A stretch of DNA of 64,000 bases from Escherichia coli. GTDB lineage: Bacteria; Pseudomonadota; Gammaproteobacteria; Enterobacterales; Enterobacteriaceae. The stretch lies in NCBI RefSeq assembly GCF_046105845.1, contig NZ_CP151004.1; one strand, 5' to 3'. Shown piece by piece: positions 36,186-53,915 of this stretch; within the stretch, counting starts at the first letter, position 1; the number at the start of each line of letters is the position of its first letter. The position numbers and the translations under genes were made by a program. The notes under the pieces are model-generated. The model had not been told where the DNA came from. It was given only the letters and a program-made list of their open reading frames with translations, and ran no database searches.

Positions 36186-37142
36186 TCAATACCCCATGTT
36201 TTTCTTCTTCTCTAACTCTTCTTTTGCGGTATCAGGCAGGTAAAGGGTGGACTTGGTCAGGGTCAGCTTTTCAGGCATGGTGCCGTCTTTTTTATATTTC
36301 TCCAGCGCATCAAAAGCGGGGCCTGCCATGTTCGGCGTCAGTTCAACGCTGGCGTTCGCTTCGCCATCAATCATCGCTTTGTAGATGTCCGGCACGCCGT
36401 CGATAGAGCCTGTCAGGATATCTTTGCCCGGTTTCAGGCCCGCTTCTTTAATTGCCTGAATTGCACCAATCACCATGTCATCGTTATGGGCGTAAACCAT
36501 GCAGATGTTTTTGCCGTTGTTTTCCGCTTTGATAAAGCTCTCCATGACTTCTTTGCCTTTACTGCGGGTGAAGTCACCTGACTGCGAGCGGATAATTTTG
36601 ATATTTGGCGCATTCTTTATGGCTTCGGCAAAGCCTTTCTTACGGTCAATGGCGACGCTGGCCCCAACAGTGCCCTGCAGCTCCACCACGTTGCATGGTT
36701 TGCCATTCACTTCTTTTACCAGCCAGTCACCAATCAACTTGCCTTCGAGGATGTTGTCGGCAGTGACGGTGGTCATATAGAGAGACTTGTCTTTCACATC
36801 GATGGAACGATCGAGCAAGAAGACCGGGATTTCGGCATCTTTCGCCTCTTTTAATACCGGCTCCCAACCGGTCGCTACCACTGGAGCGATAAAGATCGCA
36901 TCCACCCCTTGTGCAACGAAGGAACGTACCGCTTTAATCTGGTTTTCCTGCTTTTGTTGACCATCGGCGATTTTCAGTGTGATACCGCGTTTTTCGGCTT
37001 CACTTTTCGCCACGTTGGTTTCAGCGGCACGCCAGCCGGATTCCGATCCGACCTGCGAAAATCCAACGGTTAATGGAGCGGCCAACGCCATAGACGACAT
37101 GGCTGCCGAGACTGCAGAGACTACAAGTAAGCGTTTCCACAT
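36186..37142 (-). CDS. ytfQ: periplasmic galactofuranose-binding protein YtfQ
   Basis: 318-aa ORF with signal peptide MWKRLLVVSAVSAAMSSMALA, sugar-binding protein fold family. Confidence 0.92.
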   Translation of the reverse strand: MWKRLLVVSAVSAAMSSMALAAPLTVGFSQVGSESGWRAAETNVAKSEAEKRGITLKIADGQQKQENQIKAVRSFVAQGVDAIFIAPVVATGWEPVLKEAKDAEIPVFLLDRSIDVKDKSLYMTTVTADNILEGKLIGDWLVKEVNGKPCNVVELQGTVGASVAIDRKKGFAEAIKNAPNIKIIRSQSGDFTRSKGKEVMESFIKAENNGKNICMVYAHNDDMVIGAIQAIKEAGLKPGKDILTGSIDGVPDIYKAMIDGEANASVELTPNMAGPAFDALEKYKKDGTMPEKLTLTKSTLYLPDTAKEELEKKKNMGY

Positions 37143-37212
37143 AGGGTTGTCCTCGTCGGGGTAATTATTATTGGTGAAAAGATGTTCGCGAAAAAACTAT
37201 AGACAATTCGTT

Positions 37213-37233
37213 ATGTAACGGATTGCGTTACAT
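37213..37233. promoter_or_regulatory. perfect palindrome ATGTAACG-N5-CGTTACAT upstream of the ytfQRT-yjfF operon (candidate operator)
   Basis: 8-bp perfect inverted arms with 5-bp spacer, about 70 bp upstream of ytfQ start, in the ytfQ/ppa divergent region. Confidence 0.4.
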
Positions 37234-37451
37234 CACACTTCAAAAAAGTAAATAAAACGTTAATCACAAGTTTGTAATCGCTTTCATCTCACTATGAAAA
37301 ATGCGGCTACGGTTATGGATTTTCCTGCTCTTTAAACCACCTTAAAACTGGCTAAAAAGGAAAATGAAGAAGAAAACAAGCGAAGACATTCGGCGCGAGT
37401 TGGCTATAATACTCGGCACTTGTTTGCCACATATTTTTAAAGGAAACAGAC

Positions 37452-38656: not shown

Positions 38657-38670
38657 CTGCACCTCCTTAA

Positions 38671-38687
38671 GTTATACAAAGTATAAC
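38671..38687. promoter_or_regulatory. palindromic candidate operator of the chpSB promoter
   Basis: GTTATACaaaGTATAAC perfect 7-bp inverted repeat 15 bp upstream of chpS. Confidence 0.5.
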
Positions 38688-38828
38688 TCACGGTGCTACA
38701 GGAAACGTTTTACCCCTGCGCATTTGTGAACGCCAGCAGAGTTTTTTATGCGTTAACAGATATGGAAAGCGGCTCGGAGAGAAAAGCAAAAGGTGAGGGA
38801 ATTACAAAACAGAATGCGAGTCGTCTCG

Positions 38829-53054: not shown

Positions 53055-53915
53055 ATGATCGCAATTACTGGTGCCACTGGCCAACTTGGTCACTATGTTA
53101 TTGAATCCTTGATGAAAACGGTTCCTGCCAGCCAAATAGTGGCTATCGTTCGTAATCCGGCAAAAGCCCAGGCCCTGGCAGCACAAGGCATTACCGTGCG
53201 TCAGGCTGACTACGGCGATGAAGCCGCACTGACATCTGCACTACAGGGAGTGGAAAAACTACTGCTGATCTCTTCCAGCGAAGTGGGTCAACGTGCCCCG
53301 CAGCATCGTAATGTTATTAATGCCGCAAAGGCGGCTGGCGTGAAATTTATCGCTTATACCAGCCTGCTACATGCAGATACCTCCCCGCTCGGCCTCGCCG
53401 ATGAGCACATCGAGACGGAGAAAATGCTGGCTGATTCTGGCATCGTTTACACCCTGCTGCGCAACGGCTGGTACAGCGAAAACTACCTCGCCAGCGCCCC
53501 GGCAGCACTGGAACACGGCGTATTTATCGGTGCCGCGGGCGATGGCAAAATTGCCTCGGCAACGCGGGCAGATTATGCGGCAGCTGCGGCGCTCGTGATT
53601 AGCGAAGCCGGTCACGAAGGCAAGGTTTACGAGCTGGCGGGCGATAGTGCCTGGACGCTGACACAGTTAGTGGCAGAGCTGACCAAACAGAGCGGAAAAT
53701 CGGTTACCTATCAAAATCTGAGCGAAACCGATTTCGCTGCGGCGCTGAAAAGCGTTGGCCTGCCTGACGGACTGGCGGATATGCTGGCGGATTCTGACGT
53801 TGGCGCATCGAAAGGCGGTCTGTTTGATGACAGCAAAACGCTGAGCAAATTGATTGGCCGCCCAACGACAACGTTAGCCGAAAGCGTAAGCCATCTTTTT
53901 AATGTTAATAACTAG
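53055..53915 (+). CDS. qorB: NAD(P)H:quinone oxidoreductase QorB (YtfG)
   Basis: 286-aa NmrA-like ORF with MIAITGATGQLG Rossmann motif. Confidence 0.92.
   Translation: MIAITGATGQLGHYVIESLMKTVPASQIVAIVRNPAKAQALAAQGITVRQADYGDEAALTSALQGVEKLLLISSSEVGQRAPQHRNVINAAKAAGVKFIAYTSLLHADTSPLGLADEHIETEKMLADSGIVYTLLRNGWYSENYLASAPAALEHGVFIGAAGDGKIASATRADYAAAAALVISEAGHEGKVYELAGDSAWTLTQLVAELTKQSGKSVTYQNLSETDFAAALKSVGLPDGLADMLADSDVGASKGGLFDDSKTLSKLIGRPTTTLAESVSHLFNVNN

Follow-up and report, generated by a model that had tools for sequence, protein, structure and literature searches.

The only furanose-specific sugar importer known in E. coli is that of the ytfQRT-yjfF operon, the promoter of which is known to integrate galactose, arabinose and cAMP. 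Among the sites described for regulators of this kind of promoter and for other dimeric regulators, GalR operators are 16-bp pseudo-palindromes with half-sites 9 bp apart and a central CG. In CytR operators, GTTGCATT octamers are adjacent to tandem CRP sites ~52-53 bp apart or lie between them. TyrR boxes (TGTAAA-N6-TTTACA) and UvrY/GacA boxes (TGTAAG-N6-CTTACA) both contain inverted TGTAA/TTACA pentamers that are read by dimers. For ytfQRT-yjfF itself, induction dependent on AraC and arabinose has been described, as has co-regulation with mgl by GalR/GalS (PMC10191376, PMC11127945), and in a delta-cya strain expression of ytfQ was 3.6-fold lower and that of ytfR 5.2-fold lower (PMC4512719). 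At ppa/ytfQ, GalR gave a ChIP-chip peak (ratio 22) that ranks third in strength genome-wide and was attributed to the site GTGGAAACGCTTACT (PMC5110547).

The window (the whole stretch of E. coli DNA that was analyzed, 64,000 nucleotides of contig NZ_CP151004.1) was found to contain the palindrome ATGTAACGGATTGCGTTACAT at positions 37213-37233. It lies within the 309-bp divergent region between ytfQ (36186-37142, minus strand, 318 aa) and ppa (from 37452, plus strand). As ytfQ is on the minus strand and starts at 37142, the near edge of the palindrome is 71 bp upstream of the ytfQ ATG, in agreement with the distance of about 70 bp given in the original prediction. The perfect inverted arms of 8 bp (ATGTAACG/CGTTACAT) and the 5-nt spacer were likewise borne out by the sequence of this strain. 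The original prediction also held that no regulator gene is adjacent; none was found in the window, nor in the 5-kb flanks of related loci. The palindrome by itself is not beyond chance. Perfect inverted repeats with 8-bp arms and a spacer of 0-10 nt number 45 in the window (nested ones counted), with 11.5 ± 4.8 expected per 64 kb from Markov-shuffled sequence. A pattern search found a single occurrence of the exact pattern in the 64-kb window, although uniqueness of this kind is a post hoc test. It is the conservation of the arms that raises the palindrome above chance.

To describe this conservation, 80 loci with YtfQ relatives were gathered (one genome per species), and the upstream regions of 23 Enterobacteriaceae were aligned with that of the window, giving 24 sequences from Escherichia, Citrobacter, Enterobacter, Pseudocitrobacter, Phytobacter, Superficieibacter, Pluralibacter, Mangrovibacter and several MAGs. 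The core, ATGTAAC (37213-37219)-N7-GTTACAT (37227-37233), is centred on 37223, and 22 of the 24 ytfQ upstream regions agree at all 14 of its arm positions. These 22 carriers are spread over Escherichia, Citrobacter, Enterobacter, Pseudocitrobacter, Phytobacter, Superficieibacter, a Pluralibacter sp. and Mangrovibacter. One Enterobacter has a single arm change (GTAACAT), and in Pluralibacter gergoviae both arms are gone, with TGTGA, GCA and TTGTCTATAG retained. In an ungapped comparison anchored on the downstream block, four of the seven spacer positions and the six bases 3' of the right arm vary freely, and no indel was found from GAA-TGTGA to TTGTCTATAG in 23 sequences. Most E. coli carry the inner C-G pair; T, A or C takes its place in the majority of other genera. 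The window's 45-mer is present unchanged in 4613 of 5426 complete E. coli genomes and the K-12 allele in 373; the site of K-12 MG1655 (ATGTAACGCAATCTGTTACAT, NC_000913.3 4449871-4449891) has 7-bp arms only.

The conserved unit is 7-N7-7, and the perfect 8-bp arms are strain-specific. The suggestion that the size and symmetry of the site are those of a dimeric operator was upheld as regards the two-fold-symmetric arms, which are invariant across genera and decayed jointly in P. gergoviae, but not as regards the unit, which is not 8-N5-8. As in dimeric operators generally, symmetric arms are conserved beyond the spacer and flanks and hold a fixed position relative to the predicted promoter. Because the arms never vary, they offer no covariation by which reading by a protein could be separated from other constraints. 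The site was not found upstream of ytfQ in Pantoea, Erwinia, Tatumella, Rahnella, Serratia or Pectobacterium, nor in Brenneria, Yersinia, Budvicia, Aeromonas or Vibrio, and in these taxa ppa is not the neighbour of ytfQ.

The register of the palindrome can be given relative to a predicted ytfQ promoter. The block TTGTCTATAG (37196-37206, minus strand) is invariant in the 24 sequences and contains TATAGT (37201-37196), which, taken as the -10 hexamer, would place the start near 37189. With this predicted start, the palindrome would span about -44 to -24, with its centre at about -34, a position typical of repressors. In the ytfQ sense the palindrome is directly preceded by GAAnTGTGA and followed by the six variable bases and then TTGTCTATAG. 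The TGTGA (37237-37233), which is invariant in all 24 sequences including P. gergoviae, opens a CRP-like site, TGTGA-TGTAAC-GCAAT (37222-37237, minus strand), centred at 37229.5. This site agrees with the 22-bp consensus at 13 of 22 positions; its left half is perfect and its right half (GCAAT) weak. As no indel occurs between TGTGA and the -10 block, the CRP-like centre would be at about -40.5 and that of the palindrome at about -34. The spacing to the predicted -10 fits a class II CRP site (centre -41.5/-40.5), and the overlapping TGTGA-N6-GCAAT is a plausible candidate CRP site. The two elements are interleaved: the perfect TGTGA shares one base with the palindrome, the left arm of the palindrome is the N6 spacer of the CRP-like site, and the conserved spacer bases GCA belong to the weak right CRP half, so that GCAAT corresponds to the palindrome spacer and not to a palindrome arm.

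The palindrome had been described as lying upstream of the operon; it is upstream of ytfQ, but it is inside the predicted core promoter and interleaved with the CRP-like site rather than isolated. Since P. gergoviae lost both arms and kept the CRP half-site and the -10, the palindrome can be regarded as one unit that is separate from these, and a core promoter retaining TGTGA, GCA and TTGTCTATAG can exist without it. A consensus promoter scan returned no promoter on the ytfQ strand and only a ppa promoter at 37383-37410; this is explained by the poor -35 of ytfQ, as expected for an activator-dependent promoter. Further upstream, a T-tract follows the conserved sequence TTAAC-N6-TT(T/C)AC; this distal block (37248-37263, minus strand, about -59 to -74) may act as an UP-like element, as a direct repeat of the response-regulator type or as the site of a further factor. 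The AC dinucleotides of this block are phased approximately one helical turn apart.

The other regulators of this control region were not named in the original prediction; two GalR/GalS-type operators and an AraC site are present. A GalR matrix was built from 18 ChIP-defined sites (Qian et al., 2016, PMC5110547) with the ytfQ site left out, the training sites scoring 14.4-22.1 bits. The two best scores in the 64-kb window were those of O2 (18.8 bits) and O1 (15.3 bits). O2, GTGGAAACGCTTACT(T) (37126-37141, minus strand), is the published ppa/ytfQ site (PMC5110547, Tables 3 and 4), whereas O1, ATGAAAGCGATTACA (37273-37287, minus strand, centre about -91), is absent from the sites given there for ytfQ. 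O1 is conserved in 24 of 24 sequences with palindromic variation. As O2 overlaps the ytfQ start codon, its conservation is partly a coding constraint (MWKRLL). The ytfQ start itself (37137-37142) reads ATGTG, an AUGUG overlapping-start context, and ytfQ is mentioned in PMC9841429. The centres of O1 and O2 are 147 bp apart with the palindrome between them, and the pair could enclose the promoter in a repression loop of the gal type. The ChIP-chip peak of GalR covers the whole region, at a resolution which cannot separate sites 90 bp apart (PMC5110547). Some caution is needed with this published peak, as it spans at least three distinct symmetric sites.

An AraC I1-I2-like direct repeat, GAGCAGGAAAATCCATA-ACCG-TAGCCGCATTTTTCATA (37293-37330, minus strand, about -104 to -141), is conserved 60 bp upstream of the palindrome, and in many genera it is 80-95 bp further away. 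Its pattern (nAGC-N7-TCCATA, 4 bp, TAGC...) matches that of the K-12 sites at araBAD, araFGH and araE. The insertion of 80-95 bp was found in 11 loci, between O1 and the distal block, and in these genera the distal block stays with the CRP/palindrome/-10 module. An additional insertion of ~110 bp is located in the leader of one locus, downstream of the -10. These insertions indicate that the AraC/O1 and CRP/palindrome/-10 modules tolerate very different spacings.

The reading which we favour, with a probability of roughly 50%, is that the site is the operator of a dimeric repressor, encoded elsewhere, which would compete at the ytfQ promoter with both CRP and RNA polymerase. A symmetric dimer is suggested as the reader because the arms are invariant, the centre is variable and both arms were lost together. 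Each subunit would read one ATGTAAC arm, the arms being 14 bp apart from centre to centre. The operator would cover about -44 to -24 of a sigma-70 ytfQ promoter; the left arm would double as the class II CRP spacer and the right arm would overlie the -35 region. Since it would overlie both the CRP site and the -35 region, a bound protein would be expected to exclude cAMP-CRP and RNA polymerase and to repress ytfQRT-yjfF. Such a repressor would act in addition to GalR/GalS, which would work through O1 and O2, probably by looping, and to AraC, which would activate from upstream. We infer the start site, and with it the positions, as well as the occupancy by CRP, the sign of the regulation and a protein as the reader of the arms. 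The operator is supported by the identity of the arms in 22 of 24 sequences, by the constant register to the -10 block, by the all-or-none loss in P. gergoviae, by the cAMP-dependent expression of the operon, by a poor GalR score and by the lack of signs of an RNA role. Against it, it would be uncommon for a factor to have a single target and none at its own gene, this count of targets referring to the ~15% of K-12 that was scanned.

The explanation that comes closest to the favoured one, although it is itself rather unlikely, is that GalR, GalS or the spacing-tolerant paralogue CytR uses the arms in a non-canonical manner, as a third operator that aids an O1-O2 complex or as a CRP anti-activator. 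The sequence ATGTAAC resembles the best GalR/GalS half-sites (TGTAAnC; mglB site TTGAAAGCGGTTACA, PMC5110547). The likeness to GalR extends to the start of the half-site (TGTAA), to the standing of ytfQ as a GalR ChIP target with the ratio of 22 at ppa/ytfQ, to the position between O1 and O2 and to a promoter position that fits repression. However, the palindrome reaches no more than 7.2 bits with any 15-mer, compared with at least 14.4 for the ChIP-defined sites. The GalR/GalS geometry (nTGnAAnCGnTTnCAn, 16 bp, central CG) also differs from that of the palindrome, which is 21 bp long and of odd length, with A/T at the dyad and half-sites 14 bp apart, i.e., half a turn (5 bp) more than in any GalR operator. 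With this score, and with O2 as the published site, the palindrome is neither the published nor a canonical GalR site.

For CytR, the palindrome abuts the CRP-like site, as CytR operators do, and it is one base per half away from the octamer. Yet a comparison with GTTGCATT gave 6 of 8 matches per half, the discriminating T (TGTAAC and not TGCAAC) is invariant in all species, and there is no flanking pair of CRP sites 52-53 bp apart; a second TGTGA 31 bp upstream is confined to Escherichia, Citrobacter and Enterobacter. P. gergoviae lost the palindrome and kept O1 and O2; these elements thus evolve independently, which argues against the use of the arms by a LacI-family protein.

Slightly less likely again is a positive or architectural role for the bound protein, which would act together with CRP from another face of the helix or relay the AraC signal. 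The centres of the CRP-like site and the palindrome are offset by 6.5 bp, which would put them on different faces. AraC is bound far upstream, yet arabinose strongly induces the operon, and a bridging mechanism is plausible for this reason. A centre near -34, over the -35 region, would nevertheless be unusual for an activator, and the bending of DNA by CRP together with the interleaved contacts makes co-occupancy unlikely.

It is improbable that no separate factor is involved and that CRP, RNA polymerase (alpha and sigma) and DNA-shape constraints account for the conservation, the dyad being incidental. The left arm does lie wholly in the CRP 22-mer, the right arm is where sigma region 4 and alpha contact class II promoters, and no second copy was found in the scanned sequence (700 kb of K-12). 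On the other hand, CRP spacers normally vary and TGTAAC is invariant, and at none of the allowed spacings does the right arm resemble a -35. In P. gergoviae both arms have decayed while TGTGA, GCA and the -10 persist, and the arms are therefore dispensable for the core promoter. An exact 7-bp dyad in 22 genomes is also not expected from asymmetric constraints. Nor is the palindrome a CRP dyad in its own right; the CRP dyad is TGTGA-N6-TCACA and the arms are TGTAA-N9-TTACA, with nine and not six bases between the pentamers.

An RNA hairpin in a long leader, whose AraC-dependent promoter would lie immediately downstream of AraC I2, is highly improbable. In its favour, the AraC site and O1 remain adjacent despite the 80-95 bp insertion that follows them, as a separate upstream module would; the pair TTCATA-16 bp-TACAAA might act as a weak promoter; and the centroid fold contains the 8-bp hairpin. 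The putative leader of 120 nt has, however, a z of -0.11 against shuffles and a minimum-energy fold without the hairpin. There is no Rfam match above chance, no compensatory change was seen, the inner pair is lost in K-12 and in many genera, and the register is fixed to the -10 block and not to an RNA feature. An intrinsic terminator was rejected along with structured RNA, as no terminator-like site was found.

Regulation of ppa or of a divergent promoter instead of ytfQ is similarly improbable: the palindrome does occur only in genera with ppa as the divergent neighbour of ytfQ, but the sole consensus ppa promoter is 150 bp away, and the distance to ppa varies between genera (219 to ~310 bp) while that to the ytfQ -10 never changes. 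Owing to the insertion, 269 to 408 bp separate ytfQ from the start of ppa in different genera, and since the register to the -10 is fixed while the distance to ppa varies by ~90 bp, the site belongs to the ytfQ promoter module. The site goes with ytfQ rather than with ppa.

The palindrome was also compared with the sites of other regulators. The AraC half-sites (nAGC-N7-TCCATA, 17 bp, 4 bp apart) do not occur in it. TyrR and UvrY/GacA boxes have inverted TGTAA/TTACA pentamers, as does the palindrome, but with eight and not nine bases between them; the sixth base of the palindrome is C, and the regulons are unrelated to sugar transport. None of ~100 E. coli regulator consensus sites is known to fit both the half-site and the N7 spacing, including those of TyrR, UvrY, ArcA, OmpR, RstA, CpxR, HexR, DeoR, GlpR and GntR, and likewise those of CRP, CytR, LexA, NagC/Mlc, IscR and PadR-type regulators. 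The NsrR site (11-1-11, AAGATGyATTT-n-AAATrCATCTT) was rejected, since the palindrome shares only GATGTA with the hmp site; in the K-12 hmp site (AAGATGCATTTGAGATACATCAA) the ATG/CAT cores are 4 bp closer together than in the palindrome, and a literature search found no link of NsrR to ytfQ regulation. The PlaR/KdgR box (IclR family, ATnTGAAACnnnGTTCAnTT) has a spacing of N3 compared with N7 in the palindrome, and ytfQ is not among the reported targets (PMC6958661). For YfeC, the "ytfQ" site obtained by ChIP-exo (U00096.2 4448117-4448149, signal/noise 18.7, also bound by RNAP; Gao et al., 2021) is inside the coding region, ~130-165 bp after the ytfQ ATG and ~200 bp downstream of the palindrome. 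The PPTP-seq, Kim 2012, Gao 2018 and Conway 2014 datasets gave no usable ytfQ regulator or start-site entry, and a full-text literature search with both strands and both alleles gave no match to the palindrome sequence.

A motif search of the kind that had been proposed as a check found the exact pattern at ytfQ, but no second N7 copy with two or fewer mismatches in the window, the related loci or 700 kb of K-12. With up to two mismatches allowed in the 14 arm positions, only ytfQ sites were recovered from the window and 81 loci (844 kb), and none was found in fourteen 50-kb pieces of K-12 (700 kb, ~15% of the genome). These pieces were taken from around mgl/galS, ara, gal, galP, galR/araE, yph, xyl/plaR, rbs and als/mel, and from around sgc/yjh/uxu, dgo/yid, gat/yeg and srl/asc/ygb.

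When metagenomes were scanned for the pattern, with the ytfQ context excluded, at least 120 matches were obtained, most of them unrelated. On at least six unrelated high-GC contigs, (C)ATGTAAC-N7-GTTACAT(G) lies on the start of ~150-aa genes of the Rrf2 family (Pfam E-values 1e-27 to 1e-32). In six such loci the Rrf2 genes begin within CATGTAAC-N7-GTTACATG, downstream of a TTGAC motif, an arrangement suggestive of leaderless, autoregulated genes, the AT-rich spacer resembling a -10. These putative autoregulatory operators share the identical core and the 7-N7-7 geometry with the ytfQ site and lie over promoter and start codon, but their host organisms are unrelated to E. coli. The operator reading of the ytfQ site gains some support from them, as ATGTAAC-N7-GTTACAT would serve elsewhere as the operator of a winged-helix dimer; the E. 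coli protein is not named thereby. E. coli is not known to have Rrf2-family members other than IscR and NsrR.

A bolder proposal, put forward tentatively, is that the palindrome is the single high-affinity target of an Enterobacteriaceae regulator which is new or mis-assigned and which would bring a third signal to the galactofuranose/arabinofuranose transporter beyond galactose (GalR/GalS) and arabinose (AraC). This regulator may be a winged-helix protein like those at the Rrf2 genes with the identical core, and the site may have arisen when ytfQ was placed beside ppa in the family ancestor. As far as its sequence allows it to be classed, the object is of an ordinary kind, a putative transcription-factor operator, but unusually well conserved in a well-studied organism. 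Control by GalR/GalS, AraC and cAMP-CRP is already known at ytfQ, and the candidate dimer operator would, on evenly balanced odds, be new on top of these. A deeply conserved operator in the ytfQ core promoter, beyond the motifs of the known regulators, would mean that regulation at this gene is not yet fully charted even in a model organism. The 21-bp site, which was unique in everything scanned, would be a clean bait for finding its factor.

Several further symmetric sites were noted. Two alpha-proteobacterial homologues of ytfQ have a different palindrome of equal 7-N7-7 geometry, ATAGTCA-N7-TGACTAT, located at about -109 in one and about -118 in the other. An AraC-family gene lies upstream of the ytfQ homologue in the former, and the neighbours of these homologues offered no transferable candidate. 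A 23-bp palindrome, CATGTAACGTATTACGTTACATG, with 8-bp arms and a 5-nt spacer like those of the window site, is near-identical in seven unrelated high-GC contigs from the metagenome scan and is found mostly just after stop codons. No regulator was found in the contexts examined, and this palindrome may be a repeated intergenic element or a terminator-like hairpin. In the window itself, the sequence CTGGCATCGTTTACA at 53437-53451 scores 14.7 bits on the GalR matrix and is the qorB site predicted in Table 4 of PMC5110547. Another perfect palindrome with 8-bp arms, AGTTATACAAAGTATAACT at 38670-38688, lies just upstream of the toxin-antitoxin genes chpS-chpB and is probably their autoregulatory operator.
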